NCBI GenBank assembly: GCA_012295275.1
Contig: CM022675.1
Coordinates: 2,046,001-2,110,000 of the forward strand
Length of the DNA: 64,000 nucleotides
Source of the DNA: Chrysomallon squamiferum
Lineage: Eukaryota > Animalia > Mollusca
Direction of reading: 5' to 3'
Shown in pieces: positions 1 to 60,462 of this stretch. Within the stretch, counting starts at the first letter, position 1; each line of letters begins with the position of its first letter. The translations under genes were made by a program, and so were the position numbers. The notes beneath the pieces were generated by a model. That model did no database searches and was not told the origin of the DNA. It worked only from the letters and a program-made list of their open reading frames with translations.

Positions 1-246
1 CTGAAATGAAAAAAAAAGAAAGAAAAAATACATTATCTATTTAAATTATATATTTTAATACAATTTCTCTCTTTGGATAATATATTTGTCTATTGTATAT
101 AGTCAATGAAATTATCATGTTCTAATCCTATTTGACTATCTAAATTTAATAAATATATATGTTCCCTGTGTGAATTATCTATTTTCATATTTTCTTTATT
201 TAATTAACGTAAAATATTTCTATAAAGAAACATAGAACAACGTTAC

Positions 247-298
247 CTAGACCAGTGGAACAACCTAGAAATATCAGATACACGAATGATATCCACAT
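247..298 (-). CDS. Signal-peptide exon of a diverged paralogue that continues left of the window
   Basis: MWISFVYLIFLGCSTGL(G); same 52-nt length, same acceptor spacing and gtaac donor as 52089-52038. Confidence 0.8.
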
Positions 299-14599: not shown

Positions 14600-14663
<64 letters not shown>

Positions 14664-18563: not shown

Positions 18564-18607
18564 ATTGAAGTTACCCACACTTGACATATTAGAATTACAA
18601 TACTGAC

Positions 18608-19096
18608 TTGTCTCCAGCTCACAGTTGTAGCCAGTGTAGTCATTTCCACAGTCACAGGTGCCGTCATTTTGACAAGTTTTATTATTAGCACAATCCTGAC
18701 CCTGTCGTCTGCAGTCGAAGTATTCTTCACCTGTAAAACAACATTTTTAACATAGGATAACTTTCATGACTGAAAATTGTTATTGAATAAAAGAAAGAAA
18801 AAAATACATATGTGACAGATTTTACTTTAAATTGCAATAGAGGTAGGAGGAATAGTAGTAATAATAATAATAATAATAATAAAATAGAAGAGAATAGACG
18901 TTAGGAAGAATAATGTGGAGATAACCAGTAAACATGACAACTGTTGTGACCAGTATGAAATAAAGAAAGCAGCATATCGAAATTATAGTCATCCAAATTT
19001 TTGTTTCAAATTTTATTTATTTATTTATTTAGAAATATTAATCATTATTTTACTTTTATTAATCAGTATTATATAGGTTTTTTCACTGTTCAGATG

Positions 19097-19141
<45 letters not shown>

Positions 19142-19433
19142 GCGTATTTAATTACTGAAGTCGTCTTGTTCTTAACCCTATTTCACCATGTAAACCAAAA
19201 AATATATATCATCATTTAAAGGAATTCTTTCTAAAATATTAATGTTATAATTTGAATGATGTATTTGTTTTTAATATTTTGTTCCACTGTGTGAACTATC
19301 TATTTTCAAATTCCCCTTCTTTTTGTGACAACAGACACATACAATATTTCTATAAAGAAACAGAGACGAAAATAAAGTTACCTCGAGTGATGGAACAACT
19401 TAGCAGTAGCAGATAGACGAAAGATATCCACAT
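18608..19433 (-). CDS. Exons 1-2 (19433-19382, 18730-18608) of another EGF-ZP gene copy, cut by the assembly gap
   Basis: Essentially identical to 52089-52038 and 51370-51248; the following intron runs into the N-gap. Confidence 0.8.
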
Positions 19434-21819: not shown

Positions 21820-21931
<112 letters not shown>

Positions 21932-23863: not shown

Positions 23864-23907
<44 letters not shown>

Positions 23908-24953: not shown

Positions 24954-24987
<34 letters not shown>

Positions 24988-26007: not shown

Positions 26008-26047
<40 letters not shown>

Positions 26048-26051
26048 TTCT

Positions 26052-26131
<80 letters not shown>

Positions 26132-30700: not shown

Positions 30701-31640
30701 ATTATTATAATTATTATTATTTTAGTATTATTATTAATTTTTTTTTATTATTATTATAATTATTATTATTTTATTATTAAATTTTTTTATTATTATTATT
30801 ATTATTTATTTATTTACTTTATTTGTTTTTTTTTTTTTTTTTTTGTTTCAGAACTTTACAATTAGGGAAAAAACTCCATTAAAATAGCGGCTTTAATACA
30901 GCACTATTATAATGAAGTTTTAATAATTTCTGAAATTAGCAATGTTCTTTTCTAATAAACTGTGAAACCTGATAGAATTATCATTTTATTTTTAAAATAT
31001 CAGTAAAAGTATTTACATTAGTGTTAATATGGATGTTTCATCTGAAACCAAGATTTGTTTCAAGCTTGACTGGTACATGATGCTGTTAAGAAGAGTTGTT
31101 TACAGCTAGACTGGTACTTAACATTGTTAACATGATTTGTTTACTGCTAGACTGGTACATAACAATGTCAACAAGCTATTATTTTCACTTAGACTGGTAT
31201 ATACACTGTTCACAATATTTGTATACAACTAGACTGATACATACTACTATTAACATGTTTTATTCTTTATTCACAAGTGGACTGCTACATCTGACAGTTC
31301 TGGATGTATTATGTTAAACAATAATGTAAGTCAACTTGTTTGTGTCACTGCAGTGTAACTTATTCTCTGTTTCATATTTTCAGTATTCTTTTGTATAACT
31401 TTTTGAAATGAATATATTTACAAAAGTACTTATGACTGTTTTTGTTATTCTTGTTGCACTTTTGTTCGTTAGATAAGAGAAAGAAAAAAAATATCTGTAT
31501 AATTTCACACATACAGTCCTTTTGAAAAACAGCAAAGCACAATATTGATAGAATATAAACATGCTTCACAATGCTAAATTAAATGACATCTTTATTTTCA
31601 TATTTGACTATAACGTGAAATTTTTATTTTATTTTATTAT

Positions 31641-31683: not shown

Positions 31684-33262
31684 TTAAAAAATAAATAAAA
31701 ACAAAAACCCTGTCTGATATGGATCCTTTCTCTGCAGGAGTTAGGATGATGAAGTGAAGTTGTATTTTCAGATAAGTGGTGTGTGCACTACACAGAGTAA
31801 TACGTTAATTCTTGAGTACATCTATCCACTCGTCATATTTCTTTGATTTCTTTGGAGAGAAAAGTTTAGAAAAGGTGCGTTAGTTCTTTCATCTACATCA
31901 TATAGCTCTCTATTTTGTGTGAAAACAATCTGAGAGAGAAAAGTGAAGTTTAAAAACAATTTAACAAAAAATGAACAAGGCTGAAGTAGTTTCGTTTAGA
32001 GCTGCATTAGACGTGGACTGTGAGTGCTGGGTGGAGCACAGACAGATTTCATCTACTAGTAATTTTGTGCTTTGCTAAAATGTCCACTATTGTTTAATTT
32101 AACTTCATCACTCATAATGACAGGATCTGTAAAGGAAAAAGTGTAGGCACAAACACAAACACCCATACACGCACACACACATGCACATACACACACACGC
32201 ATACGCACACACAACAACATGACACAACAGAAACATTGTAGGAAGAAACGAAGTTATTTCCCTTTTTTTTTTTTTTTTGTCTAATTTCTCTTTGTAGAAG
32301 AGAGATACTGGCTGTAAATGACACAAAGGTCAGGTAGAAGGAACGAAGCTGTCTCTTTCTTGTTTTTACTTTTCGGGACATTTTCATTAATTTCTATAAT
32401 TCTGGCTCGTGAAAGAGAATTACTGGCAATAAATATCACAGAATGATGAAATAAATCATATTTAAATGTTTGTACATAGTTAAAATGACCTACTACTACT
32501 GTTATTATTATTAAATTGTTTCTTGTCTTTTCCTGCTTGTTCTGTCTTTTTTCTCCTCTCTGATGTGTTTCTGAATGCACGCATTCGTTCACTGATGACA
32601 TCTATACTGAAAAGTCTTCTGCAAGTGTGTTTTCATCCATTTCCATGAAGTGAAGCTTATTTTAGTGAATGGCAATATTTAATCATTAGACAATTATTGT
32701 TTGTACTAAATGAATTCAAAATCAAAACTAAAAAAAAGAGAAAAGTGATAAATAGATTTTGTAAAATGAGCATGAACTGGTAACGGTATGGTAAAATGTG
32801 GGCAATCACTCTTCACATTAAATATTTCTAAGAATACTGACATTTCCCCTTAGATATTACCATCAAGATACAGAAGTGACTAGACAAGATGCACCAAGTT
32901 AAACGGATAGGACAGTACAGTGTGAGAAAACACAATAGAATCGCTGACAAATAGAGATTTCTTGCAGTCCGGATTGTCGACTGGTCGCGCTTTCACGCGA
33001 TATCGTTTCTGCCAAACTGAATGAACTCACAGCTGAAGATACAAAGAAAACACGAAGACTGGTTTAGAATTTCAATCATTTTTTGTATTATTAAAAATAA
33101 TTCAGAAGAAATATATTTCCACCTTATAAAATAGCCGAGAACGGTTTAGGAACAGTTTCGAAATAGGAGAATGTACACTTAAGTCAAAACTTCAGAATTA
33201 TAAGTTCATCAACATAAAGTGAATATTTGTTATATTTATTTATTTTATTACATCGACATTAC

Positions 33263-33416
33263 CTGGCTTAATATCGTCAATTTTATCTGGCACCGTCGAG
33301 GTCAAATCTGAAAATAATGAAACGAATTTTATAAATATGTTTGTCTTACTTGCAAAACGTTAAAAATGATAACTAACGTATTACAATTATGATGAAGATG
33401 ATGGTGATAATAATAA

Positions 33417-33459
<43 letters not shown>

Positions 33460-33678
33460 TTTGCTGCAACTGCTATTACTATTATTTTGATTATTATTAA
33501 ATAAAATATGAGAAAAAAAATCTACATTTTCTTACTTGTAGTAAACCCAAATGTAAGTTCTTCATCTAAAGATACAGCTGCTGATTCTGAAATTGAAGAC
33601 CCGTCTTTGAGGTTGATGTTGAACTGGACAAGCGAGGAGTCTGTTGAGTTGACTGTGTTTGTGATATTCTGTCCGTTT
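33263..33678 (-). pseudogene. Second copy of orphan exons 6' (33678-33536) and 7' (33307-33263)
   Basis: Matches 14446-14883, splice sites intact. Confidence 0.7.
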
Positions 33679-36600
33679 CTGCAGAATAACATTACAAATA
33701 AACACACGTAAAACATAATATCGTAAACAAGATTAATATTCACACTTTCAATATATACATTTTCTTCTTCACCATAACCGATGGTTTTATTTCTTGGCAT
33801 ATGAGGTCAGTTCATAAAATGTACGTCTGTCATACGTTTTCAAATATTAGCTGCATATTAACAATTAACGTTTATAACGTGTTAATATAAACAATTTTCT
33901 GCTAATGAACTAGTAAATAAAACTAAATGATAAAACACAAAGATATATATACATACTGCTTAAATTACGTTCAATACTATTTTAATTACTGCTTTGTACA
34001 CAGAAAAAATGCAATCTGTTTTTTCTTAAGGCTTTTTCTGAGAGTAAAATTTCGCAAAAAAAAAAAAATAAAAAAAAAATCTATTTCATTTAAAGAAATT
34101 ACAATTATAAGGAGCTGTGATCTTTTATATTAGTCTAACCTGAAATTAATAAACATGTATAACTTTTCGGTGTTAAAAGTTCTATTCCTAAAAGTCCAAC
34201 CAGACTGAGTCCCCATGTGTGGCACGACTCAGTCTACTAGAAACAGACATTTTATTTCTTTTTAAAACATTTATCACAATTAAATTTCCTGTGAATTTGA
34301 AACTGATGTAACAGTTCCTCTACACGTCTAGAACAGACTGTGATAGAGAGCAATACATACATTAATAATATGACACCACGAGTCTATACATATAAATAAA
34401 CCACACACACACACGCACGCGCACACACACACGCACGCGCACACACACACACGCACGCACGCACACACACACACAGAAGTATATGTGTACTGTAAATCAA
34501 TGCCTGAATATTGAAAACTATATGGACAATTCCATTGCCCAAGGAACAAAAGGAGAAAACTTACGTAAAATAATGAAGATTATTTTTACTGCTTATTTTT
34601 GCTTTGTCAATCTGAAGACGCGGCACGTAATTTTACTACTACAGACAACACAAAACAGGAGTATTAGGAATATTAAAACACTGACACTAAACTGGCTTTG
34701 GCAGTTGATTTCACTCAGTTTATAATGTCACAGCATCTGTTTAAAAAAATAAGTCAGTTTAAGGTAATTCTTGGAAATAGCTAACTAAATACTGGATTTA
34801 AAACAATGAGAAAGTCCATCATAAAACAAAAACAAAATTAAAAAAATCTAAATTGTGAGAAGATAATCATGTACTTTCTAACTCTTATTACCAGCCAAGG
34901 CAAAGTTAAAAAATACATCAATTTTTGTTATGTCTACTTGAGAGAGAGCAGGACACTTTAGCATTCATATAAATCAGGACATTTTTTACTACCACCGACT
35001 TATTTATTTACCATTTGTGAACAGAAAATGGTTTCACCAAACACAGTGAGGTCACCTGCAGCACAATGACGTTTTTACCCACAATTCTTCAGTTTTTAAA
35101 GAAAAAATGGACACCACGTTCATGAGGGAACGTGTTCAAAATAAATAAAGTTTGTGTATTCAACCTTTTCAGACTGGTCTCAAAAATTGTCATTTCAAGC
35201 CCAAGAAGAGCACAGAGTATTGCAAAGTAATTACAGATTTTATAATAAAATGGAGATTAATAACAGACAAAAAAAAACAGACATGTGTAGACAGAAGAGT
35301 AAAGAAACAGAAGATGGCAGAACGCGGAGCATGTTGAGAGCAGTGAGAAGAGCAGAGACAATACAACTGGATGCGTTCAAATGTGACAAATCCGTGGATA
35401 AAAGCGATCACTAATGAGCATTCACATTTCCACATACTCCTAAATTACGAAAACTGCAAGCACGGACAAAATCAAGTTTATGGCCATGACTGACATGGAT
35501 GACTTAGCGGAAGTGACTTGAGATGTCTGAAACACTGATTGAGATGAAACAATTTCAAAAGTAGTAGAAGATGCATCAACTAATGATCTACGCGTTTTCA
35601 TTTCCTCCTTATTACCCCTGTTTATGGAACACTTCTGTACTATACGTGCCAGTATCAAGACGAAATACAAAGTGCTCATTGGCTGCAATATCAAGCAGGC
35701 TTTTTACAGTATACATTTACATACTGCCTTGCCGCACTCAACTTTAATGGCACCTGATAATTTTGCACATTCCAAATACTCTATCACAGCAAACGATCCT
35801 CACTTCAGTGAAACCTGTACTCAGTTGGTCTGATGCCACATTTTAAAAACCGATAGAGATACACGACTTGAGACCCTCGAAGAGAAAAGCTTTTTGCGGA
35901 TGCCCCACACATGAGAGGAATTGATCGGATCCGCTTCAGTGTATCAGTATATCTATATCTATCCATCTATATCTATATCTATCCAACTATATCTATATCT
36001 ATATCTATCCATCTATATTTATGCGTTAATTTATTAGTTGACATCAAATGTCAAAATGTTGTACACACTTAACTGAAATTTATATAAGAAACATTGTTTT
36101 GCTTTGGCATACTTAAAAGTGTTTATGTGGCAGTATTGATGAATATACTAACACCTTATTATACCATTGTTTTGGCGACCTCCATTAGTCAGAACAAAAT
36201 AAGACAATGACACAATGCAGTGATATCAGTTCAAACACTCGTTTTACATCTTTATAACAACAGTTTGTTCTGACTCAAGAAGACTTTTGTAGTGAAAACA
36301 TAGACGACATATGCTGTGACATCACTACTACAGAGTGATATCTATATATATTAAACTGTACCATTTGTTTTACACTCAGTTACGACTAGCCTGCAGAAAG
36401 CAGGTTTAACATAATTTAAAATAATACCGAGCATGTTTACTTTCTTAATATCTCCACAGGGACACTTCAAGTATAAGAAATAAAGTAAAGTAAAGTAAAG
36501 TAAAGTAAAGTAAAATTAAATAAATAAAAATAAAACTAACAAACAAATAAATAAATAAATAAAATAAATGAGATAGATAAAAGAAAATTATAATAATAAT

Positions 36601-41851: not shown

Positions 41852-42009
41852 TTACTGATTGGACTTTTTCTTCCTCAGGAAGACGAACACCACAATCCCA
41901 ATGACAAGTGAGAAGATGATCACCATGACAACACAGAGAACAATCAGAATCGTGGTGTTGATACCAAATTGATCAGATCGTTGCTTTTCACCTGATGTCT
42001 GTGAGATAC
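41852..42009 (-). CDS. Exon 19: transmembrane helix and short basic tail
   Basis: ILIVLCVVMVIIFSLVIGIVVFVFLRKKKSNQ*; TAA at 41854-41852. Confidence 0.9.
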
Positions 42010-42342
42010 CTAGAATGTAGGAAGTTTTTATTTATTTATTTTTTTCAATGTCAGATGTTTCTTTTCTTTCTTGCAACTAATATATGCTAAAGAATGTCTG
42101 CATTTAACTGTTGATTAAATTTGACAAAACTAATCACAAATATGAGTTAAGTTAAAGGAAACAAATTACGATTACAGATCTAACATAAACTCACTTGCTG
42201 TTCGATCTTCATTCATCACGTCCAGAACAATATATGTTTTTCTGACAAGTTCATCAGACATTTCAGCAGATCTTCTTTTTCTCCCAAATCCTTCCTTGCC
42301 ATTGCAGTCCACCTAAGATTGACAGTTTGTTTGTTTGTTTGT

Positions 42343-42373: not shown

Positions 42374-45300
42374 TTCATTTATACACTACGAAAAAAAGTA
42401 TTCAAAAAATTAAAACCTTTCAAAAGTAGCAATTTTCAAGTAGTAACTTAATATTTAAATATATTCTCTCTTTCACATATGATATATTTAAATATGTTCC
42501 AAATGCTGTCCTTTATTAATAGAGACGTTGCCATTTTAAGGATATATTTAAAGGTAATTTTGACAAGAAAAAGTATTTTACTCATAATAAAACCTCAGAC
42601 TTACATTTCAAGGGAGAAAACTTGCTAAATTTAACATTCTTCTTTACCGAAAAAAGTTTCGAACTTACTGGGTCACACTGAGACTTTTGTCCTGGAGGAC
42701 AAACTTTGACAGAACATTCTGTAGAGACTGCGTTGTTTTTGTTAAAGGTGAAAGCTTTCAACTTGAATGTGACGTTGTTTCCCGATCTTTCAGGCTCCTG
42801 TATCATCAGTTTACCGATTTCAGACGAAGGACAGCTGAATAAGTAAAGATTATAAGATAAAATAGCATTTCTCTTAAGTTTTCACGATCTGAATAAAGTA
42901 TGTGTGTTTTAAAGAGAGATTCCCTGTATAAGTTATTAGACGTTATAAAATTAGATATTTCAAAACAAGAACAAATAATCTGAGGTAAGAGTAAATATTT
43001 TCAAAAGAATTAGTCTGCAGTTCGGTTGTTTATCGAGAGGTCATCAGTTTACGTACATTATTATTTGAATCGAGAATCTATCTGGTTTGTAGAAATGAAT
43101 AAATAAATAAATAAATGAAAAAAGTGTAAAAAGAATAAAAATAAATAAAAAGTAAAATAATAATAACAATAATAACAACAACAACAACAACAACAACAAG
43201 GACAGCAACAATGATAATGACGATGATGATGATGCTCAGATTTGATGCTCTAAAAATCTTTGTTTATGTTTATATAAACATAAACAAAAAAAAAAAAAAA
43301 AAAAAAGAATTACCTGTTTTCAATGATTTTCAAAGTTTCACTGTCTTCTCCAGTTTTCTGATTATCAGCAGTGCATGATTCCACCCTGAGAGTACCGGAT
43401 TCTGGTTCTGTTTCAAATACACTACAGTACTATTTATTGTAGTTTTGTTATCTTAAACAAATTAATATTTTCCTTGAGGAATATTCAAAATCATGCTAAT
43501 TCTGTACATATCACCTTGACTGGTAATCTTACCATACATAAATGCTTGTATTAGTGAGAGTTAACATCATTCTACTTTTGCATTTATTATTATAACTGCT
43601 GGTATCAAAGTCATGAGACTGACAGAAATTTAGAAAGTCTAAAAAATATATTCAGACGTTTACACAAATTAGTCCATATTAAGTGAGACATCACAATAGA
43701 CTTTATATAATTTCAATACCAATCTTAGTATGGAACAAACACTTGATATCATTTCTTTACAACAACAACAACAACACACACACACCCGCATACACAGACA
43801 CACACAAACACATATACACACAAATTTAGTATAGAACAAGCAGTTCATATTGCAAAGTATGCTATTAACTATATGCATATATGTGTGTAGTTTTGTGTGT
43901 ACAATATTCTTCTGTTAGTTTTGATTAATATTTTCCAAATTCTTGATATGTGCAAAATGAAAAGGAAATTTCTAAAATGTTTCCAACAGTTTTAAAAATA
44001 TATGCAAAAAGATATTCCTGTAAATGACATAGATGTTTGTGTGTTAAATATTTTGAAATGTGTTCAAATGATTCAATACCGCTATCGTTCAACTTACAGT
44101 CGAATGCTAACAGAGTTTTTCTTATTTATTTATTTATTAATTTATCTGTTTTTTAATAAATAGAAAAATTTAGATGATGAAGCATTCAGAAGACTCAACA
44201 TTGCATAAAACAAGACACACGCACGCACACACAGAGGCACACACACACACACACACTTACCTGCACATTTCATGCCAGCGTCATCTTCGTGGTGACAGTG
44301 ATAGTTGCCCCATTGAAAATTGCACTGTTGAAGACTAGTTTCATTTCCCAAACAGTGAATATCACGCAGAAGGATAGGTCCTGATCCTTCACCAAAATTA
44401 TCGATATCAACTGCTGTTGCATTTGAACTGTGAAACATGGGTTATCATTTTATAATATGTATTTAATATTATTTTGTTTTCTATATTCATTTAATAATCT
44501 ACTGTAAAACAATATCTTACAGTTAATAACTGCAACGAGAAGCTTTTTAAAGTATAACCGTAACACTTTGCTTTTTATAATTTCTATTTCACTTACATAA
44601 TGTCACAAATCTGTTTATTTATTTAATTCGTGTGTCACTTGTGAAATACCTCTATTTCTTAATGTATATATTTGTATCACAGGCTAAAAATATATGATTA
44701 AATAATTAAAAAAAAAAAAAAATAAAATAAAAGTAAGAATAAAATGTTACAGACATCTAGAGAAATATCTCTTATTGAGACACAAGCATTTTTCAGAAAC
44801 CATCTGTTTTAATAATAATTATTATTAACTTACATAGTGAAACCGAGCATTCTACAGTAAATAGCTGCGTTATGATAAGCATTATTAATAACTTACTTAG
44901 TGAAACCCAGCATTCTGTAGTAAACAGCTGTTATAATAATCATTATTAAAAACGTAATTAGTGAATCCCAGCATTCTGCAATAAACAGCTGTTATAAGAA
45001 TCATTATTAAAAACGTAATTAGTGAATCCCAGCATTCTGTAGTAAACAGCTGTTATAATAATCATTATTAAAAACGTAATTAGTGAATCCCAGCATTCTG
45101 TAGTAAACAGCTGTTATAATAATCATTATTAAAAACGTAATTAGTGAATCCCAGCATTCTGCAATAAACAGCTGTTATAAGAATCATTATTAATAACTTA
45201 CTTAGTAAAACCCAGCATTCTCTAGTAAACAGCTGTTATAATAATCATTATTAAAAACGTAATTAGTGAATCCCAGCATTCTGCAATAAACAGCTGTTAT

Positions 45301-47091
45301 AAGAATCGTTATTAATAACTTACTTAGTAAAACCCAGCATTCTACAGTAAACAGCTGCGTTATAATAATCATTACTAATAACTTACTTAGTAAAACCCAG
45401 CATTCTACAGTAAACAACTGTTATAATAATCATTATTAACAAATTACTTAGTAAAACCCAGCATTCTGCAGTAAACAACTGTTATAATAATCATTATTAG
45501 TAGCTTACTTACTGAAACCCAGCATTCTACAGTAAACAGCTGTTATAATAATAATTATTAATAACTTACTTAGTAAAACCCAGCATTCTGCAGTAAACAG
45601 CTGCGTTGTAATCAGTATGATATTTATCACAGACTGTGCCCCACATTCCAAGATATTTAATCTCTACTCGACCTTCTCGTTCTGAACTGCCTCCAACCAG
45701 ACGAATCTCAATTTCTGAATTGTCTTCTACAGAAAACAAAAATACATTTCTTTGTCACGTCACTCAGCAAGTATAACATAGAAACCGTGATACTATAGTT
45801 AGATTTTATTTTCAAAGTACACAATGAATAAAATAGCTAGGATATTTCATGTTAGTTTCCCTGTGTGTGTTGTGTATAAGGCAATAGCTATTTAAAAATA
45901 TTAAATATGTAATCATTCTGACTGCTGTGTAAAAGACATTACCTGCACACTTCAGGGCTAAGGACTTTCCTTCAAAGTCGTCCGCAGTGAATTTAATGTA
46001 ACACTGATTAATATTCTCTTCCAATCCAGAACATCGTACTTTTGAAGTCAAAACCTTCTCTCTGCTCGACGTCATGTTATGCTCGTCCCAACTCATCAGA
46101 ATTGGTTTGTAACTTCTTCCAGTGAAGAAGAAAAAGAAGAATTAAAATAAAAATACAAATAGAAATACAAATAACACTACTATTAAAAAATGACACATTC
46201 TTTTTATTATTATTATTATTATTATTCAGTCGTAATTAAACGATTTTGCTCTCTGAGATGTCCCACGTAATTTATATTATAGTCCTAGAAACAAGCTTTT
46301 AAGTGACTGTAATATCTTTTCTATAGATTTTATTTTTGTGGAAATTTCTGTAATATTCAAACTTTGCTTAACTTCAGATGACATGTAATTCTTTCTAAGT
46401 TACTTGTTTGTCTGAGCTTACTCGTTAAATCCAAGTGTTCTGCACATAACTCTAGCATCCTGTGGAGACGGACTGGAATCATAGAATACACCCCACTCAT
46501 TGTTCATTTTCACTTCAACGACGCCGTAGTTACTGCTTGGACCACCAACTAGTCGTAACTCAATGTTTGATATGTCCACTACAACATTCATATATATATA
46601 TATATATAAAAGGTCTAAAACAAACAAAGAAACAAACTGATCACAACGTTCAATAGCATGTCATTTAAATTTGGTATGCTTAGTTTTTTTTTATCTTTTT
46701 ATTTTCACCCACTTCCTCGCATATTTACTTAAATATATTCCTAAAAGCCTGGACATCTGTCTGTAATTATATAATGGTTAATTAAACTGTAAAGTTATAG
46801 TAGTTTTAACATAAACACCTGAACAGCTAATGTTTACATAAGTACATCCACTGTCTTCATTGCGATGACTTAGAAGACACAGATGAAGAGCAGGTTCATA
46901 GTCAGAACATTTAACGTCATATTTCCATTTACTGCCTGTAACAGTTTCACCACTATCATAGAGTTCAGCTCTATAAACATAAATATAAAAAGTCATATGG
47001 ATGGATGGATGGATGTACGTGTGTGGGTGTTTGTATCGAATATTTTAAATTTTAAAATTGTCTAAAATAATTTATTCATGTGATGTTCTTA

Positions 47092-47126
<35 letters not shown>

Positions 47127-47494
47127 GATGAGAATAGCATTTCCAATGGTATTAATACTGTAACAGTGAACATAATAAATTATTGGTATTGAACAAAATT
47201 TTGACAAAGTTATATTATTATTATTATTATATAAATTAACGGAGGTGTTTAAAGAGATATACTGACTTTGCATAACCCATCTGCCTGCACACAACTTCAG
47301 CTGCATCATTTGTAAAGAGATCTGTTCTACACACGAAATTCCATTTGTCATCATCAAATACTTGAAGTTTTCCTTCATGGTCGTTTGCCCCATCCACCAG
47401 TTTCAGTTTGTATGGTGTAGGGTTTTCTTTTGTAGTCGTAGAAAACATTTATTTAATTTATTCAGCTGTTGCACTCAATCATTATTATATTATT

Positions 47495-47578
<84 letters not shown>

Positions 47579-48452
47579 GTTATTGTAAGATCCTGACTTT
47601 TTTAATGATGTAACATTTAATTACAGGTTTTACCGATTTATTGTTACTACTACTACTACTGCTACTGCTACTACTATTAGTATTATTTTTAGTAGTAGTA
47701 CTAGTACTAGTAGTAATAGTATATAGATACATATGTATAGATACGTACATACACTGACATCCATGTATTTCATATTCTGTTTATTTCCGACGAAATCGAT
47801 AATTATTTATTTATATCTCCACACACTTGAAAACTTGTACTTGACAGGAGCGTAAAACACTACTACTACTACTACAAGTACAACTACTACTACTACTACT
47901 GCTACCACTACTACTACTAATAATAATAATAAAGAAAAGAAAAAGAAAGAAAAAGACAACAAACAAAAAATCTTCCTTTTCCTATGACATAATGATGATG
48001 ATCATATGATATTTCTTACCATCACATATAATTCCAATATCTTCATCCCCGCAGTCATCATCACAGTCACTAATACTCCAGGTTATACAATCATTTACAT
48101 CTCTTTCCAGTCCATAACACCTTAAACGACCGCTGAAAACTTTACCACTTCCACCTCTAACGAAACCTTTACCACGAGGCACGCCAAACGCTCTGTTAGA
48201 AACACACACAGAAATCTGATCATAACAGCTAACAAATGATTTACATTTATATGTTTCTTTTCATTTCAAATTTATTTTCTACCACTATTATGTGCATTTC
48301 AGAACATTGTGCTACTGCACGAAATCGTTAATACAGTATTACCCAGATAAGATTACACATTTTTGTTAAGATACTGCTTTAACTTATATCCATTTAGTTA
48401 GATTTACTGGATATAACACAGTTTACATCAATAAAAAAACAACAACAAAAAA

Positions 48453-48549
<97 letters not shown>

Positions 48550-49272
48550 AACAACACACAGATCGATAATCTTAATCTCATCTTAGGATTTCTATATATA
48601 TATAATTACATTTATTTACTTATTTAATTGTTTGTTTATGTATTTATTTAAATAAATATAGTGCTAATTATTTCCTAGTTGTTTTTGATACTTAGTATTG
48701 GTGGATATCATACGGAAGTGTTTGTAATTCACTTACTTGTTGAATCCGATATTCCTACACACTGTAGTGGCTTCGTAGAAGTCGAAAGAATCAGTATGCA
48801 GTCTGCCCCATTCACCTTTGTACAAAACTTCTACACGACCTTCTTTAGTTGTATTACCATCAGCCAGACGAACACTCACTTCATAACAAAATAGTAAACA
48901 TAAATAATAATTCATAGAAAATTCCCAAGAATTCGTTAGGAAATGGGAAAGTAGTTTGAAAATGGGTAAGTCGACAGTTTTAAGTCAAGAATAAATACTG
49001 AAACAATTCAGAAACATAAAATAAATAATTAAAGTCTATAGTTATAATGTAGTACATATATATGTTTTACCTGGTTCAATGTCGGCAGTCTTTTCTGGTA
49101 CGTTTGCTGTCAAGTCTGAGAATACAACAAAAATAACAAAAATAAATACATGAATAAATAAGTAAAAAAGCTAAAGCACCTCAAAAAACAAACAAAAAAA
49201 ACAACAAAAAAAACAACAACCGAAGATGACGCGAAATCAGAATTAATTAATGACAGCTGTTATTACTATGAC

Positions 49273-49357
<85 letters not shown>

Positions 49358-49775
49358 ATGAAGTTCACTATGGAAACAACAACTTGTTCCTACTTGTAGT
49401 AAACTCAAATGTAAGTTCTTCATCTAAAGATACAGCTGCTGATTCTGAAACTGAAGACCCGTCTTTGAGGTTGATGTTGAACTGGGCAAGCGGGGAGTCT
49501 ATTGAGTTGACTGTGTTTGTAATATTCTGTGTGTCTCTGTAAAATAACATCAAGAGCTATTCCAGATATATGCAATTAATATCCAAACTTTCCACCGTGT
49601 TAATAATCTTATACAAATTAACAAATCGTCTTTTTGTGTAATATCCCAAAGTAAAATATTAATACTTGAAATGGAATGTTCAATGCATTAATTTCATCTT
49701 TACTGAAATGTTAATTCAGTATTAACCGCAATTGTAAGTAAAGTTATAGACATTCCAGGAAAGAAAGAAAGAAAC

Positions 49776-49821: not shown

Positions 49822-50185
49822 TATAACTAACCTTTCAATTTCTTTGGTTGTTATCACTTTGGTGACAGTCACGGTTACGACATCGGTGTTTTTTTCACTA
49901 CAAGTGACAGAGACTTTTGTATCGAAGTTTGTCATGTACTTTTCACTGAACTGAATGATCACATCTCGAGTTCGACCTCCATTTACCTTAAGAACGAGTC
50001 ACAATTACACGAGTTATGTTCAATCAATGTCTAATACCACTTTGTACAAAGATAACAACAAATATTTTTGAAAACAATTTTTCTGATCTTATAATTCCAC
50101 AAATACACAAAATTTTAAATCTATTTATTTAAACAATTTGTGGAAGTAGCTAAGTATTTAAACATATTTCATTAAGAAAAAATCA

Positions 50186-50224: not shown

Positions 50225-50522
50225 AAAGAAAGAAAAAAGTAAACTAAGAATTATAAAAATAATGAACAAAACTAACCTGAGTCACCCCTCCACATTCAGG
50301 ATCCTTAACGTTCAGAACCACGCCCTGCTTTCCCGAGGGTAGATCTGATGACGTGAATTTGCAACCTGGAGCGTCTTTTTCACCTTTAGCATAGACGACA
50401 CCACTGAATGTTCCAGCAGGATTAATCATAATCATCATAGAACTTTTCTGACAGGAAACATCATCTGCAAATATTAAGATTAGCATTTGTTAGCAGAAAT
50501 AATCATGATGATTGTGATGATG

Positions 50523-50591: not shown

Positions 50592-51729
50592 ATTATAATA
50601 ATAAAGAAAGCGTATTTGGTATCAAATAATAATATTAAGCTTCGTTTCAGATTAATTTAAATCAGATCATGAATCTCACTGTGTTTAGTGACAGTTTAAA
50701 TCTGTTATAAACTTAAATAGTATGTTACTATTATATTTTTGTTATTTATTTATTTATTTTACATTACTTTACTGGGAGGTGAAAAGTATAGTAAATAACA
50801 GCAATCTAAGTTAATATAAACGCACACACATATATACATACATACATATATTACATAAATATAATAAATGAGCATACTGAAAACAATTGGAATATCATCT
50901 ACCCTTCATTGCTACATAAAAACAGTGGTAGATATAAAAATAAGTATTATTTTGTTAAGTAGAATGAATTACTCACATCTTTTGTTTTCACAGTGGTCAC
51001 CATAGAAACCAGGAGGACAGAAACACGTCTTGTTTCCATTATTGTTGTAACAGATACCTCCATCAGAGCCACAAGAGTCAGTCTGATTGGTACACGGACT
51101 TGAACCACTCAAACCTGAAAACACAAATTTCGTATCTGTCATGATATGAAAAAAACAGAAAAAACCCAAAACTACCTATACCTTCTTTTTTTTTGATGAT
51201 ATCATTGAAGTTACCCACACTTGACATATTAGAATTACAATACTGACTTGTCTCCAGCTCACAGTTGTAGCCAGTGTAGTCATTTCCACAGTCACAGGTG
51301 CCGTCATTTTGACAAGTTTTATTATTAGCACAATCCTGACCCTGTCGTCTGCAGTCGAAGTATTCTTCACCTGTAAACAACATTTTAACATAGGATAACT
51401 TTCATGACTGAAAATTGTTATTGAATAAAAGAAAGAAAAAATACATATGTGACAGATTTTACTTTAAATTGCAATAGAGGTAGGAGGAATAGTAGTAATA
51501 ATAATAATAATAATAATAAAATAGAAGAGAATAGACGTTAGGAAGAATAATGTGGAGATAACCAGTAAACATGACAACTGTTGTGACCAGTATGAAATAA
51601 AGAAAGCAGCATATCGAAATTATAGTCATCAAAATTTTTGTTTCAAATTTTATTTATTTATTTATTTAGAAATATTAATCATTATTTTACTTTTATTAAT
51701 CAGTATTATATAGGTTTTTTCACTGTTCA

Positions 51730-51797
<68 letters not shown>

Positions 51798-52089
51798 GCG
51801 TATTTAATTACTGAAGTCGTCTTGTTCTTAACCCTATTTCACCATGTAAACCAAAAAATATATATCATCATTTAAAGGAATTCTTTCTAAAATATTAATG
51901 TTATAATTTGAATGATGTATTTGTTTTTAATATTTTGTTCCACTGTGTGAACTATCTATTTTCAAATTCCCCTTCTTTTTGTGACAACAGACACATACAA
52001 TATTTCTATAAAGAAACAGAGACGAAAATAAAGTTACCTCGAGTGATGGAACAACTTAGCAGTAGCAGATAGACGAAAGATATCCACAT
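41852..52089 (-). CDS. EGF-EGF-ZP (EGFZP-like) type I membrane protein with four SRCR domains inserted in ZP-C; 19 coding exons, 886 aa
   Basis: Manual exon chain, all GT-AG and phase-consistent: 52089-52038, 51370-51248, 51114-50977, 50464-50277, 49986-49832, 49536-49394, 49115-49071, 48878-48737, 48192-48020, 47426-47267, 46970-46819, 46578-46422, 46115-45943, 45726-45570, 44427-44261, 43407-43314, 42834-42669, 42312-42195, 42009-41852. Total 2661 nt, open from ATG to TAA. Domains were recognised by eye from Cys spacing and motifs. Confidence 0.88.
42195..43407 (-). CDS. Exons 16-18: remainder of ZP-C, furin site RKRR, putative external hydrophobic patch
   Basis: LRVESCTADN...LKIIENSCP...FKLKAFTF...ECSVKVCPPGQKSQCDPVDCNGKEGFGRKRRSAE...VRKTYIVLD: ZP-C C.A / lI..GCp / AF.F / C.v.vC motifs. 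Confidence 0.88.
44261..45726 (-). CDS. SRCR domain 4 (exons 14-15), the most canonical
   Basis: IRLVGGSSEREGRVEIKYLGMWGTVCDK...AAVYCRMLGF / FGEGSGPILLRDIHCLGNETSLQQC...WGNYHCHHEDDAGMKC. Confidence 0.93.
44810..45605 (-). repeat. ~61-bp minisatellite made of the exon 14 3' end plus its splice donor
   Basis: About 13 units of cagctgtttactgcagaatgctgggttttactaagtaagttattaataat (minus strand). Confidence 0.9.
45943..46578 (-). CDS. SRCR domain 3 (exons 12-13)
   Basis: LRLVGGPSSNYGVVEVKMNNEWG...ARVMCRTLGF / VRCSGLEENINQC...LALKC. The exon 13 acceptor is a tandem AAGAAG (exon start 46115 or 46112). Confidence 0.85.
46819..47426 (-). CDS. SRCR domain 2 (exons 10-11)
   Basis: LKLVDGANDHEGKLQVFDDDKWNFVC...AEVVCRQMGY / VKCSDYEPALHLC...GCTYVNISC. 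Confidence 0.88.
48020..48878 (-). CDS. SRCR domain 1 (exons 8-9)
   Basis: VRLADGNTTKEGRVEVLYKGEWG...VCRNIGF / GGSGKVFSGRLRCYGLERDVNDC...CGDEDIGIIC. Confidence 0.9.
49071..49536 (-). CDS. Exon 6 (interdomain linker and first strands of ZP-C) and exon 7 (45-nt linker)
   Basis: AQFNINLKDGSSVSESAAVSLDEELTFEFTT resembles the ZP-C start (v.lGd.l.l pattern). Exon 7 encodes NLTANVPEKTADIEP, phase 1-1. Confidence 0.75.
49832..50464 (-). CDS. Exons 4-5: ZP-N subdomain
   Basis: VSCQKSSMMIMINPAGTFSGVVYAKG...PGC...ECGG...VIIQFSEKYMTNFDTKVSVTC: four-Cys invertebrate ZP-N pattern. Confidence 0.85.
50977..51370 (-). CDS. Exons 2-3: two EGF-like domains
   Basis: EEYFDCRRQGQDCANNKTCQNDGTCDCGNDYTGYNC and CTNQTDSCGSDGGICYNNNGNKTCFCPPGFYGDHC; six Cys each, CxC...G..C ends, phase 1-1 exons. 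Confidence 0.9.
52038..52089 (-). CDS. Exon 1: signal peptide MWISFVYLLLLSCSITR(G)
   Basis: ATG at 52089, hydrophobic stretch, donor G|gtaact (phase 1). An acceptor ttttcag 12 nt upstream of the ATG implies upstream non-coding exon(s). Confidence 0.85.
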
Positions 52090-54486
52090 ATTTACTTTAT
52101 ACTGAAAAGAAGATTAAATAAATAAACAAACAAAAAAAACAAAACAACTAATAAATTAAAAATAAATAAATAAATAAATACCTATGATGTTATATTTTAT
52201 GAATAGTATTGTGTATGCTTATGTGTGTCTGTGTGTACCTGTCAAATATAGGTGATAATCAAACATACGTCATAAAACAATAGAGTATTAACACAATCAT
52301 TAACTGTTATGAATCACATTTTTTTCTTAAAATCGTAGTTTTATGTGTTGTACACAGCAATATGCATTACTACATACGTACTTACAGACATACATACATA
52401 AACAAAAAATAGTACACACAAATCTGGAGAATTGGCGCAGACTGACCCCTTACCAAATTTTCTAATTTGACTGCTATGTAATAGCTGGTACAGTCACTGT
52501 TCAAGTTAAACAAGCCGAGTTGCAGTGGTGAGTGTATGGACCAATCGAGAAATCAAAGTTAATAGAGCTTCTCAGTTGGTGTTTTATGATCAGATAGTTA
52601 GTTTTTAAAATAGCTTTTAAGATGATTTGCATACGTTTGCTATTTCATGAGGTAAATCAGAACCCATAAATGAGATTAAATCCGATGAAAAAGACGCCAG
52701 ATGATCTTGGATTCACTTCACGAATATACAGTAACGTGAAAATATCATTACACTACAACATGCACATTTACAGATGTCCTTGCATACGCACGTCCTGAAA
52801 CTGTACAAACACATTGACTGAAGTAATGTACATATGTATTCCTACAAACTGTACAAACACATTGACTGAAGTAATGTATATATGTATTTAGAGAAAGTGG
52901 ACACTAAAGAAATTATACAAATTACATTGACTGAAGTAATGTACACATGTATATTTACAGAAAGTGGACACTAAAGAAGTTATCATACAAATTACATTGA
53001 CTGAAGTAATGTATATATGTATTTAGAGAAAGTGGACACTAAATAAATTATACAAATTACATTGACTGAAGTAATGTACATGTATATTTACAGAAAGTGG
53101 ACACTAAAAAGTAATTTTACAAATTACATTTACTGAAGTAATATACCCATGTATTTACAGAAAGTGGACACTAAATAAGTTATACAAATTACATTGACTG
53201 AAGTAATGTACATATATATTTAGAGAAAGTGTACACTAAAGTAATTTTACAAATTACATTTACTGAAGTAATATACCCATGTATTTACAGAAAGTGGACA
53301 CTAAATAAGTTATACAAATTACATTGACTGAAGTAATGTACATATATATTTAGAGAAAGTGTACACTAAAGTAATTTTACAAATTAATTTTTACTGAAGT
53401 AATATACCCATGTATTTACAGAAACTGGACACTAAATAAGTTATACAAATTACATTAACTAAAGTAATGTACATATGTATTTACAGAAAGTTAACACTAA
53501 AGAAGTTATACAAATTACATTAACTAAAGTAATGTACATGTGTATTTACATAAGTTTTAAATTTCACTCACAAAATATCACCTGCTTTTATTGTAAAATA
53601 TTAATGCAATCAGGAAATTAAAACACACACACACACAGACAGAGAGACACACACACACACACACAAACACAATCACACACAGAACACTACCCAACAAACA
53701 GCAAGCCATTCACGACCAGTGAAGCATTTTCGTAGAGCAGTAGACGCGAGATGTCTCGAGGTAAAACTGTTTGTATGTCTAACAAGAACTACAAGATTCC
53801 ATGTATTATTATCTACACACAAATGAGAGACTTACAATTGTAACACCTGCAAGAGTTAGGTAATCTTAGGACGATGTTTTAGTCTAGTTTTTAATATTTT
53901 CTTAAACACAGTTACAAATATCTGAAAAGTGTCAGCTTGTGTCTCAAAAATAAATAAATAAATAAATAAATAAACTAATCAGAAAAAGTATCATAGAGAA
54001 TTAACATATAATAATAAAATGAATTGAAAATAATAATACAAAATAGCGCTAACCTGAAATGGAATAGAATATACTGAAATGAACAACAATAACAAACTGA
54101 AAAACAGAGGTATAGATAGACACAAAGAAAACAGATATATAAAGAAGCAGATAGATGCATAGGTGTATACACTGAAAGAGTGTAGGTTGGTAGGTAGGTG
54201 GGTACTCAAGAATGAATAACATAGGTAACCAGATTCAAAAAAAAAAAAAAAAAAAAAAATTTTTCATACAAAATTATCACACATAAAGAAATGAGTTATG
54301 GAGGAAAAGGTCAAGATGATCTTCAAACACAACTGACTGAATTTGAATGTTTAACTGTTCTTTAATTTTAAGTAAATCAGCTTTGGTGTAAAACAGGAAT
54401 CAAAGAAATCTACGATCTATTTTTGGACATCCATAAGACACATACAACTGGTAAAAAGTGTTTCTAATAATATTGAGAGAGAGAGA

Positions 54487-54600
<114 letters not shown>

Positions 54601-56519
54601 CGCAGTACTAATATGCTAAATATATAAATAACACAGATACATTTAGACTAAGGTAAAGACGAAGAAAATAGAATAGAAGAGAAGATAATAAATAAACTAT
54701 TTTTGGTGTACTGATCCTTTTTTATATTTCCTCTGTGTTTGGCAAACAATGTTTTATTTTTCATGAGACTAAAAGTAATAAAATGCAACAAAAATAAAAT
54801 AAAATTAAATTAAATAATAAATATAAATATATTACTCACAAATGTGGCTGAAACAATGTGTAAAAATAAATTAATAACTAATATACTTTTCTACTTGAAA
54901 TAATATCAGAAAACAAAGAGTACATATTAACAGATACATTCAAGTATTGATTCTTTGTTCTGTACTGTGTTGTTAATTGACTGTTTACACCATTCGTCTG
55001 AAAATACAATTTCGTGTCATCTCGTAATCCACTCTACCATAAGATGTGTTTTCTTTACTCTGTAATCAAACACCAGAAGATCTAATTATGACAAAACTTT
55101 ATTTATTGTCGTGTTGTTAATTTACTGTTTACATGAAATGCCTAGAACTCTCAGAGACAGTCTGTGTATTAACTTATGTCACTGTAACATTCTTACTGTG
55201 CACTTTTAGAAAGAAAACAATGAGAAAAGACGTTATTCAGAAGTATATATTATCATATATTCACTGGTCCAAAATGAGTCTTAGTATTAACATTAGTGTT
55301 AGTGTAGCAGTTGTAGTAGTAGTAGTAGCAGCAGTAAGTGTAGCAGCACTGTTTACATAATATAGATTTCCTGACGTATCACAAAATATAAAATTAGTGA
55401 CTTATACATTTATTGAAGTAAAATACAAAAACACACACACACACACATATACACATACACACACACACATATATATATGTATATGGAAATGCGAATTGAA
55501 CGTACCTTGTTATTGTAACACTCTAACCGTGTGATGTGTTTGGAAAGAAATGTAAAAATGTGTATTACGCTTTTCACTATTTTTGGGATAAAAAAAAAAA
55601 AAGATGACTTCAATGCATCACCGACTTTAAATCATATGTCATGTGAAGTCATAACTACTGTATACAAACATTTCTTTTTTTCTTTTATTATTATTATTAT
55701 TTTTATTATTATTGGGATTTTGTCTTGAGTTTTTATTTCTTGTTTGGTTGATTTCTTGGTCAAATTTGTGACTAAGAAAACCACGAGGATGAATTATCTG
55801 TATGATAAAAGAGGTTAACGAGCTAAAAGAGAACACAAACTTGTCTGATAGTATTAAACACGATTAAATGCACGTACGTCAATCATTTAGTGTTTTCCAC
55901 CTGAATTCCCTTTTAAAAATAGATATGTTTTAAAGTTGTAACAGTCGTATCTAAATCTTATAATCTCTGTGTTATTTAATTTGGTAAATTATGTGTTTAG
56001 TGTTGAGTCAGTGAGAATTCTAAGTTTAACTCATTTGTTCTTAAAGATAAATTTTAAAAAGTTTTATTTAATTGCTAATTTATTTCTGACCGAGTGGAAA
56101 TCATATATTTATCTCATGTTTTAATTTTGAATAAGTGAGAACGATGTTTATTCACAGCACTAAAACAGAAATGCACCTAAACAAACATACACACACAGAC
56201 ATGCACACAAAGCTGATATTTATAGATATATGTACGCATGTGTGTATAGTAATAAAATCTTAATGATAGAGATAACGACTGGCGACGTGTCGAGGATAAC
56301 CTGTTTGTGTTCGTGGAATAAAAGATACAAGAACCGAGGTATTACGCACAATTTTACGTATAATATACGGAAATCTTACAAAAACTGCATGTATAATGTA
56401 CATGGGCGACAGACCTCATACAAACTAAGTGATTTCAATAAAACTCCAGGATCACATTTATATAATGCCCAGCACATGGGGCGTGTCTCTAAACAAACAA
56501 ACAAACAAATAAATAAATA

Positions 56520-56555
<36 letters not shown>

Positions 56556-56626
56556 AAATGCTACTACTACTACTACTACTACTACTATTACTACTACTGT
56601 TACTACTGCTACCACTACCACTACTG

Positions 56627-56658
<32 letters not shown>

Positions 56659-57614
56659 GCTACTACTACTAAATAATAATGATAACACTTTATCTTCTAT
56701 TACTTCTGTTATTAATACATATATTACAACTACTATTTTTACTGTTTACCTACTACATCTATGAATTCTGCTGCCATTACTTCTACTCCTACTACAACTA
56801 CTAGAGCTACCACTACTGGATGTAGTCATACATGACTAAACAACGACTTAGCAGACGAGTTAGAAACAAAGACTGTGACACAGACTTTACACGTATAATG
56901 AAAGACAGTCTCAAGATAAAGTATTACAGATATGTCCGCGGATGCAGATTTCAATGTATTTCAGTTTGATTTATGATTAATTATTCTCTACTTTAAAAAA
57001 AAGAAAACATATAGAAAATGCCTTTTATACAAACAGTTATTATCATATATTGACAGACCTAAATGAGTGTTAGTATTAGCATTAGTGTTAGAATCAATCG
57101 TAATAGTAGTAGTAGTAGTAGTAGTAGTAATGCATTTAAATGCGTACAAACATATTCATTGCAATGTTTACGTGAACCTACCTTGTTTCTTGTGACACTC
57201 AGAAATGAAACTTTGTCCTCACTTACACAGTTCTCGTTCTGTTTCTCCCTACATTTGTTTGTTTTTCTATCTCATTGTCGTTTCGTATAATTTGATATTT
57301 TAATTAGTTATTTTTGTATTTGCTATGTATTTACTTGTATGATATTTTGTTAGGGTTAACGCACTTTTTTCTCATTCTGTTTCTCCCTTCAAATGTGTTT
57401 TTCTCTACCTTATTGTCGTTTCGTATAATTTGATATTTTAATTAGTTATTTTTCTATTTGCTATGTTTTTTACTTGTATGATATTTTGTTAGTGTTAAGG
57501 CACTTTTTTTTCTCTGCTTTTAGCTTCTAGTCAATATATCTGTCCGTGTAACCTTTTTTGTATTAATTTTGTTTTTATGATAACTATTAATGTTTCGTTT
57601 TAATACGAAATACG

Positions 57615-57648
<34 letters not shown>

Positions 57649-58668
57649 AATAGTAATAATAATAATAAGAAGAAGAAGAATCATAAATTTGCATATGTAA
57701 CGCCTTGTCACAGTAATAAAAATATAGCAAATACTAATGGCTGATAGATATTTTTAAAAACAAACACATTTTTATTTTGAATAGTGTAGACACATTCATC
57801 TGAAAATACAATTTCGTGTCACACGCTAACACCTGCAGATATAATATCTATCTTAATTGTTTTTTGTAATATCAAGCCTAAGTTAACATCGTAATTTATT
57901 TTGAAAGTCTCTCAGTGCAATCTCTGAAAGCTCTCACAATCTGTGCAGAAAGAGCTCGGAATTTTTATACAATGTCAAGATGATCAGAGAGGCGTGAAAA
58001 CAGACGTCTTTTTTCGCTTCTTTTGTTTTTGCTTATTAATATAGTCACTGAGGTTACTCCTTTCTTGTTTGTCTTGATGGCGGAACGGTAATGTCGTCCG
58101 CCTTTGGAGTGCGGGAGAATGGGTGCCATACGTTCGTGTCTCGTCAGCGACATCGTATGAGGTTTGTGAGGTCTGACTAATTCAGTAGTAAAATAGTCAA
58201 GTATTGAATGTCACTGCGAGCTTTAAAAATAAAACACTAAGCTACATTTTAAAACGACAATCTGCACATTGTTAATATATATATATGTTAGGAATAAACA
58301 AAACAAAAACTATAAGTAAATATTTGGATAATGCAGCTACGAGGACGAATACATATTTTTATACCTATTTAAGATGCTTTCGTTAGATAAATCAAATAGT
58401 AATAGAGATCACTGGCTGAGAGATATATATAATAACTAACTTTTGATTGATTGGTATATTCTTAATTGACCTGCAGATACAACTCCGTGTACCATCCTAA
58501 CACCCGCAGAGATAATATCTATCTCAAAGCATTTCTTTTTTACTCTATAGAAATCAGAGGCATGCAATATGAAGCTTAATTCAAAGTCGTAATTTATTTT
58601 GAAAGTTATTCAGTGCAGTGTCTGAAAGCTCTCACAATCTGTGTAGAACGTATATTATGTGATAACAA

Positions 58669-58714
<46 letters not shown>

Positions 58715-58718
58715 TTCT

Positions 58719-58754
<36 letters not shown>

Positions 58755-58755
58755 C

Positions 58756-58808
<53 letters not shown>

Positions 58809-60284: not shown

Positions 60285-60462
60285 AGTTGCGGAGATGAAG
60301 GAGAAGACGATGATGAGTGCTGAGAACCTGGCTATCGTGTTTGCGCCGACGTTGCTGAGGCCGCTTGAAACAGACCCCATGATCAGTCTGACGTCTGCCA
60401 TGTTTGAACAGAAAGTCATAGAACTGATGCTTCTCAACTACAAAGATATATTTTCTAAATGA
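60285..60462 (+). pseudogene. Second copy of the orphan chimaerin-like RhoGAP last exon
   Basis: Same translation as 27616-27793, inside the segmental duplicate. Confidence 0.75.

Follow-up and report, generated by a model that had tools for sequence, protein, structure and literature searches.

The 64,000-nucleotide (nt) window analyzed here, positions 2,046,001–2,110,000 of contig CM022675.1 in the Chrysomallon squamiferum assembly GCA_012295275.1, carries on its minus strand a gene for an EGF-EGF-ZP protein whose ZP-C domain appears to be interrupted by four SRCR domains (positions below are in window numbering). The explanation we favor has several parts: the gene would encode an EGF-ZP matrix protein with an SRCR-split ZP-C, the site of the insertion would be a socket with exchangeable contents, the split domain would refold and the protein polymerize, and variety would arise between paralogs. 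For this explanation as a whole we estimate a probability of about 0.65.

Architecture of the Gene

The gene model rebuilt from the window sequence comprises 19 exons between 52089 and 41852, with GT-AG borders at all 18 introns, and translates without an internal stop into 886 residues (Table 1). Its layout is a signal peptide, two EGF domains, ZP-N, the start of ZP-C, a linker with four SRCR domains, the remainder of ZP-C, a furin site and a transmembrane (TM) helix. Exon 6 closes in phase 1 and exon 16 opens in phase 1. Because each two-exon SRCR unit (315, 312, 330 and 324 nt) and the linker exon are multiples of three in phase 1-1, the whole cassette of exons 7–15 can be removed in frame, which leaves 444 residues. 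Such removability is no evidence that removal happens and needs no special explanation. An earlier note on this DNA, made from the sequence alone, had given coordinates for the insert and its borders, all of which were reproduced, together with the two reading frames of 886 and 444 residues and the phases at exons 6 and 16. Its size for the insert, 1326 nt or 442 codons, is correct for the 45-nt linker exon plus the SRCR exons; the SRCR exons alone (8–15) amount to 1281 nt.

Sixteen single exons were scanned with Pfam at E values up to 1, and exon 19 separately. SRCR matches were obtained in seven of the eight cassette exons, with no match in exon 11. CUT_N, which is of the ZP-N type, was recognized in exon 4 and ZP-C in exon 17; the EGF matches in exons 2–3 were weak. 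Scanned singly, exons 6 and 16 gave no ZP match, and the placement of exon 6 in ZP-C therefore rests on homologs. The four SRCR domains share only 25–33 identical residues per approximately 100 in pairwise comparisons, which suggests that they are old and diverged. The 886-residue model also contains four cysteines in ZP-N (Cys109, 139, 162 and 196) and six in ZP-C, as well as an FxF motif, a furin-type RKRR sequence and a strand resembling the external hydrophobic patch (EHP), these last three recognized partly by eye. The TM helix and the EHP in exons 18–19 were judged by eye.

Placement of the Insert in ZP-C

With moderate confidence, we place the interruption between strands B and C of ZP-C, which would put exon 6 inside that domain. 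In the homolog P0015, the Pfam ZP-C match begins at the LTFEF strand that precedes the insert (residues 141–267 against model positions 5–133, E 1.2e-9). The motifs of strands A–B and C–D can be aligned by eye with those of the Lottia and Pinctada EGFZP proteins (PMC9290575, Figure S1), in which the B–C loop, by the same measure, has about 12 residues.

A structural comparison was made on an AF2 model of residues 236–476 of P0001, a paralog with a PAN insert (mean pLDDT 59.7). Residues 44–119 of this model matched PAN/apple domains (Z 11.1, root mean square deviation (rmsd) 2.4, 73 residues aligned), and the flanks matched the ZP-C domains of ZP2 (Z 8.3, rmsd 4.6, 129 aligned, model 8..240), betaglycan (Z 7.9, rmsd 4.6, 138 aligned, model 5..240) and uromodulin (Z 7.5, 132 aligned). 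Leaving PAN aside, these three ranked highest of the 48,161 chains compared, and the top Foldseek row was the betaglycan ZP-C (E 0.0099). Since the aligned residues exceed the approximately 120 residues that follow the insert, the strands in front of it take part in the ZP-C match. The model of the PAN paralog predicts that the split halves refold into one domain. A prediction of the two halves of P0001 as a complex gave a score of 0.19 (mark 0.34), with the alignment not used, and a sequence search of PDB with P0015 returned no matches at E 10. Altogether, the claim of the earlier note that four SRCR domains lie inside the ZP-C of an EGF-EGF-ZP protein is backed by the Pfam matches, the homologs, the ZP-C match of P0015 and the fold of P0001.

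An Exchangeable Site in Related Proteins

A phmmer search with exon 4 against 1.84 billion proteins gave 15 matches. Six are RefSeq proteins of the peltospirid snail Gigantopelta aegis, the nearest named relatives; three are unnamed short fragments from ENA, and the other six are of repeat type. The latter were set aside; P0006, P0009, P0012 and P0013 had no ZP-type Pfam match. A seventh G. aegis protein was found as a cluster member. The seven proteins, from six loci, share the scaffold, with 43–55% identity to the window gene in the N-half and 53–76% in the C-half of the four proteins with a BLASTP match. Two of them, P0008 and P0011, are annotated as EGF-like domain-containing protein 1.

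The distance between the motifs of strands B and C was found to vary widely. It measures 7 residues in P0008, 44 in P0015, 88–89 in P0001, P0010 and P0011 (one PAN each), 166 in P0016 (two PAN) and 452 in the C. squamiferum gene. P0003 has three SRCR domains at this position, after which its gene model ends. Judged from these sequences, the socket appears as one phase-1 intron position that holds one or two PAN domains, SRCR domains or nothing across the family. The earlier proposal that exon shuffling placed the modules in a phase-1 intron within ZP-C is supported; the socket with its different contents in relatives, and the tandem array described below, were not part of that proposal. Of the annotated isoforms of G. 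aegis LOC121386274, P0016 has one complete PAN repeat more in the socket than P0010.

Word-based searches for homologs gave no result with exon 6 or exon 4, which is weak evidence, and one with residues 100–272 of P0003 (lengths 339–1080) returned only P0003 and P0015. In the ESM Atlas, P0001 led to ZP/PAN clusters and to a cluster of molluscan EGF-like domain-containing protein 2 (0.84–0.89), all to be taken as leads only. Among the clusters of at least 50 that were searched, the sole match to residues 100–390 of P0003 was a chordate DMBT1-like cluster (0.77), and none of those listed pairs CUT_N with SRCR. Arthropod clusters in the Atlas combine PAN, CUT_N and VERL_C.

Splicing of the Cassette

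Four RNA runs were used, and one shallow run, X2, aligned at 80% likeness, supplies all joints. The ten joints listed for it all follow the exon order of the model: 3-4, 4-5, 6-8 (twice), 8-9, 9-10, 12-14, 15-16 (twice) and 18-19. Exon 6 was joined to SRCR exon 8 in two contigs, with depths of 11.2 and 2.5, and SRCR exon 15 to exon 16 in two others, with depths of 7 and 3; the lengths of the joint contigs are in frame. One of the exon 6-8 contigs has 46 letters between its aligned pieces, equivalent to a spacer of about 48 nt, and the other is without a spacer. One exon 15-16 contig runs on into exon 17, with 134 nt between the pieces versus the 131 expected, i.e., one codon extra. The exon pieces differ from the window copy by 3–19%, so the contigs represent paralogs. 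Hence, SRCR exons are spliced to ZP exons on both sides of the cassette in paralogs, in line with what had been expected from the window sequence. No exon 6-16 joint, as expected from skipping, was among the ten, and the low depth leaves room for a skip form. Runs X3 and X4, also of low depth, gave no joints, which is not evidence of absence; in run X1 the summed depth was far higher over exons than over introns, a figure that is not a measure of copy number.

The degree of identity to the window differed between parts of the paralog RNA. SRCR pieces (48737–48880 and 44301–44396) were 83–85% identical, pieces of exons 3, 6 and 17 (50977–51114, 49394–49484 and 42670–42837) 93–97%, exon 4 pieces 87% and one exon 5 piece approximately 81%. 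This gives a thin hint that the inserts may diverge faster than the scaffold.

Comparison with Other ZP Proteins

The window gene shares two EGF domains, a ZP module and a TM helix with the molluscan EGFZP shell-matrix proteins, Lottia LUSP-17 and Pinctada EGFZP (PMC9290575). Those proteins have an uninterrupted ZP module, whereas the module of the window gene is broken by 442 additional residues in the B–C loop. In the parts of the text and supplement of PMC9290575 that were covered, no inserted EGFZP form was found, and peltospirids are not named in its supplements. The same source describes LZP1 as signal, SRCR, ZP and TM, and reports that some lophotrochozoan EGF+ZP proteins also carry SRCR. 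The window gene likely belongs with the EGF+ZP matrix proteins, built like EGFZP except for its broken module.

SRCR and ZP also occur together in one secreted or membrane protein in vertebrate DMBT1/hensin/SALSA and in lophotrochozoan LZP1. In DMBT1, the SRCR domains precede a whole ZP module and CUB domains are present. In the window gene, no CUB match was obtained in exon 19 or, with E values up to 1, in the 16 exons that were scanned, and a CUB domain would not fit into exons 1 and 7, which are too short. Group B SRCR domains are defined by eight cysteines; with 6, 6, 4 and 6, the four domains of the window fall short of that count. The acidic (aspartate) pair required for ligand binding by human DMBT1 (PMC7043408) is, by eye, kept in none of the four. 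The comparison was made over the motif around D1019/D1020. In LZP1, the SRCR stands before ZP, in the order given in PMC9290575, whereas in the window gene the SRCR domains lie inside ZP-C, with EGF in front. Identity with DMBT1/hensin was rejected in view of the SRCR domains inside ZP-C, the absence of any CUB found, the lack of an eight-cysteine SRCR and the missing acidic pair.

Additions to ZP modules are tolerated elsewhere, as in the ZP3 subdomain, the AB-loop expansion of fish VE, the DE-loop insertion in the ZP-N of C. elegans CUTL-9 and the long linker of LET-653 (PMC7456536, PMC7665627). In the portions of these sources that were covered, none of the four is described as a known folded domain family in ZP-C or as an exchangeable site. 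The apical matrix proteins NompA, NOAH-1/2 and LET-653 combine PAN with ZP, as the G. aegis paralogs do, with PAN listed upstream of the ZP module (PMC5769628, PMC7456536). The literature searches, which covered openly accessible text, gave no description of either SRCR or PAN lying within ZP-C. The covered parts of PMC13361971, PMC11871041, PMC5769628 and PMC6331135 contain nothing on a split ZP-C.

Relation to the Scaly-Foot Snail 'DMBT1' Genes

The scaly-foot snail has been reported to carry up to 65 tandem 'DMBT1' paralogs with 0–5 SRCR domains each, a family highly expressed in the mantle and the scale-secreting epithelium (PMC7142155). PMC7736800 gives a copy count of 70 and offers immunity as one reading of the expansion. 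The window gene is likely a member of this family. In Supplementary Data 2 of PMC7142155, a count by eye gave 50 models, 41 of them with SRCR. The first SRCR starts at residue 174–175 in five of the 50, i.e., after a leader of 173–174 residues; a ZP match is given for one model, and CUB or EGF for none of the 50.

The model Scaf282_0.15 has SRCR domains at 175–272, 287–328, 340–438 and 450–546 (PMC7142155). When the window gene is numbered from Met114, its first SRCR occupies the same 175–272 and its second starts at 284; the third and fourth measure 99 and 97 residues and lie 110 apart, as do 340–438 and 450–546. The spacing in Scaf282_0.15 would fit a model lacking exon 11 and with three extra residues. 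In Scaf481_0.9, the ZP match lies at 420–496, seven residues past the last SRCR, where ZP-C resumes in the window gene. These two published genes are 21-fold (Scaf282_0.15) and 5-fold (Scaf481_0.9) enriched in the mantle, and in the gill and the oesophageal gland the scaled values of four such genes are below zero (PMC7142155). The family and the window gene are thus alike in SRCR lengths and spacing and in tandem arrangement, and also in the leader of five models and the ZP match after the last SRCR of one; EGF, a split ZP-C and a socket are not described in the covered parts of the publications on this family.

Among the 41 SRCR-bearing models of Supplementary Data 2, again counted by eye, the last SRCR match is at most 51 residues long in 30, and several SRCR-free models adjoin SRCR-only ones. 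The short last domains and this adjacency suggest truncated and split gene models.

Discussion

In uromodulin, head-to-tail assembly is driven by the linker and FxF once cleavage has freed the EHP (PMC7737619). The hallmarks of this type of polymerization appear to be kept in the window protein, namely FxF, the furin site, the EHP-like strand and the four ZP-N and six ZP-C cysteines. We propose that a signal-EGF-EGF-ZP-furin-TM precursor would be anchored in the membrane and that its ZP-C halves would refold around the four SRCR domains inserted at the B–C loop. As FxF, the furin-type site, the patch-like strand, the cysteines and the anchor are all kept, the precursor would, by analogy, be cleaved by furin and then polymerize. 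The resulting filament may be a mantle or scale matrix, with SRCR domains hanging from the B–C loop. Differences are most likely generated between paralogs, as phase 1-1 modules are gained, lost and exchanged, and not mainly by a splice switch within one gene.

The earlier note had envisaged a polymerizing matrix that displays pattern-recognition domains. The matrix half of this view agrees with the hallmarks kept, and microbe binding is weakened by the missing acidic pair and by the expression data. Matrix binding in the mantle and scales seems likelier for the window SRCR domains than microbe binding, because the acidic pair is not kept and the matching family is highly expressed in those tissues. 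As far as the tests reached, SRCR–ZP splicing was seen in paralogs, exon 6 was placed in ZP-C, not only in the interdomain linker, and no prior account of this architecture was found.

Several points weigh against the explanation that we favor. The fold test used the 80-residue PAN insert of P0001 and not the 442-residue SRCR insert; the mean pLDDT of 59.7 in that model goes with ZP-C blocks of approximately 36–62, Z values near 8 approach the level that the tool gives for common folds, and AF2 gave a poor model of P0001 at full length (pLDDT 46.8). The RNA pieces are 3–19% off the window, so the expression seen is that of paralogs and not demonstrably that of the window copy; no X2 contig covers both socket junctions, and every joint comes from one run. 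The G. aegis proteins are automatic models, several of which end in intron read-through. P0008, which has no insert, may result from faulty gene prediction, and the empty form of the socket is the least secure. Finally, the link to the scaly-foot 'DMBT1' genes is a match of coordinates and spacing, not of sequence.

A single gene might instead produce both the 444-residue EGF-ZP form and the 886-residue SRCR form, or forms with varying SRCR number; a switch of this kind between a structural and a microbe-binding form had been suggested in the earlier note. Every unit is a multiple of three in phase 1-1, and skipping would give a loop of normal size (a gap of 10 residues; that of P0008 has 7, and by eye the EGFZP proteins of Pinctada and Lottia have about 12). 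The isoforms of LOC121386274 annotated with two PAN (P0016) or one (P0010), and the RNA contig without the spacer exon, point in the same direction. However, in-frame removability follows from symmetric module insertion, all four socket-side joints involve SRCR exons, and the isoforms in G. aegis come from automatic annotation. Among the joints of the shallow RNA there is none between exons 6 and 16; the switch is so far unsupported, and we consider it unlikely.

The insert might also block filament formation, leaving a membrane-bound or shed monomer that serves as a pattern-recognition receptor for symbionts or surface microbes, the split ZP-C being its stalk. SRCR tandems do bind microbes in DMBT1 (PMC7043408), four SRCR domains are large relative to a ZP-C domain, and immunity has been offered as one reading of the snail expansion (PMC7736800). 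Yet the protein retains the furin site, FxF and an EHP-like strand, the DMBT1 acidic pair is present in none of the four domains (by eye), the matching published genes are low in the gill and in the oesophageal (symbiont) gland (PMC7142155), and relatives hold PAN at the same site. We regard such a receptor as quite unlikely. Far less credible is that the SRCR exons belong to a separate gene nested here, are a dead insertion or reflect a chimeric assembly of tandem paralogs, even if the near-identical tandem array, the assembly gap, the orphan exons and the lack of an own start or signal in the cassette could be read that way: nine consecutive exons are in phase with no stop, paralog RNA has spliced joints on both sides of the cassette, and the same layout is found in G. 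aegis P0003.

The matrix explanation, with variety between paralogs, would have consequences beyond this gene. ZP modules are usually described with extra domains in front, and a folded insertion inside ZP-C departs from that. With contents that vary between paralogs, it would mean that a polymerizing fold has a tolerant display site, useful for ZP biology and for engineering domain-carrying filaments. The 'DMBT1' genes discussed here are likely EGF+ZP shell-matrix relatives and not DMBT1. We would give even odds to the broadest reading, in which a peltospirid ZP filament with a plug-in socket in ZP-C was loaded with PAN or SRCR by exon shuffling and amplified to dozens of scaly-foot tandem genes. 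The published 'DMBT1' expansion would then be a misnamed library of shell-matrix polymers that carry variable binding domains and contribute to building scales and periostracum. If the link to the scaly-foot genes is true, the headline armor gene expansion derives from a known shell-matrix family and not from immune DMBT1, the co-option story would change, and split gene models would underlie part of the copy and SRCR counts that were published.

Genomic Context

The gene belongs to a tandem array. Positions 18564–31340 match 51204–64000 at 98.9%, which corresponds to a tandem unit of approximately 32.6 kb, and three gene starts lie in the window. A 200-N assembly gap at 18364–18563 adjoins the second copy and likely hides about 14 kb of the tandem unit, including exons 3–19 of that copy.

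Table 1. Exons of the SRCR-ZP gene and related features in the window.
Feature	Position	Strand	Basis
Exon 1, start codon and signal peptide (signal by eye)	52038..52089	-	Same hydrophobic leader before the first EGF in G. aegis homologs
Exon 2, EGF-like domain 1	51248..51370	-	Weak Pfam EGF_TEN, E 0.005
Exon 3, EGF-like domain 2	50977..51114	-	Pfam EGF_2, E 2.3e-4; RNA contig, exon 3-4 joint
Exon 4, ZP-N first half	50277..50464	-	Pfam CUT_N, E 8.6e-6; exon 4-5 joint, canonical ends
Exon 5, ZP-N second half and start of interdomain linker	49832..49986	-	Homolog alignment; RNA contigs
Exon 6, linker end and putative ZP-C strands A (internal hydrophobic patch) to B	49394..49536	-	Homolog alignment, P0015 Pfam, P0001 fold match
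Exon 7, 45-nt phase 1-1 spacer	49071..49115	-	Gene model
SRCR 1 (6 Cys), exons 8 and 9	48878-48737, 48192-48020	-	Pfam SRCR; exon 8-9 RNA joint
SRCR 2 (6 Cys), exons 10 and 11	47426-47267, 46970-46819	-	Pfam SRCR in exon 10 only
SRCR 3 (4 Cys), exons 12 and 13	46578-46422, 46115-45943	-	Pfam SRCR
SRCR 4 (6 Cys), exons 14 and 15	45726-45570, 44427-44261	-	Pfam SRCR, E 5e-11 and 2e-10
Exon 16, ZP-C probably resumes: strand C with its cysteine, strand D	43314..43407	-	Homologs; exon 15-16 joints, 2 RNA contigs
Exon 17, ZP-C strands E-F, FxF motif, C-terminal cysteines	42669..42834	-	Pfam ZP-C, E 1.6e-5; RNA contig
Exon 18, furin-type RKRR and EHP (by eye)	42195..42312	-	Gene model; exon 18-19 RNA joint
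Exon 19, TM helix, short basic tail, stop	41852..42009	-	Weak TM-type Pfam matches
Second tandem copy, exons 1-2, then assembly gap	18564..19433	-	98.9% match to 51204-64000
Exon 1 of a third, more diverged paralog, running off the left end of the window	247..298	-	67% amino acid identity over 18 residues
Orphan exon 6 and spacer exon; no other exon found nearby	33262..33680	-	85% amino acid identity to exon 6
Twin of orphan exon 6 and spacer	~14445-14885	-	Recurs with tandem unit

The orphan pairs of exon 6 and spacer have splice sites that look intact; they correspond exactly to the 5' side of the socket and occur once per unit. Intron 14 contains a 61-bp tandem array (13.4 copies, 88% matches, 44785–45603), the unit of which consists of the end of exon 14 and its splice donor. 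A stop is met at once when the reading is continued past the first exon 14 donor, and if a later donor were used, the likely product would be a secreted, truncated protein that ends in half an SRCR.

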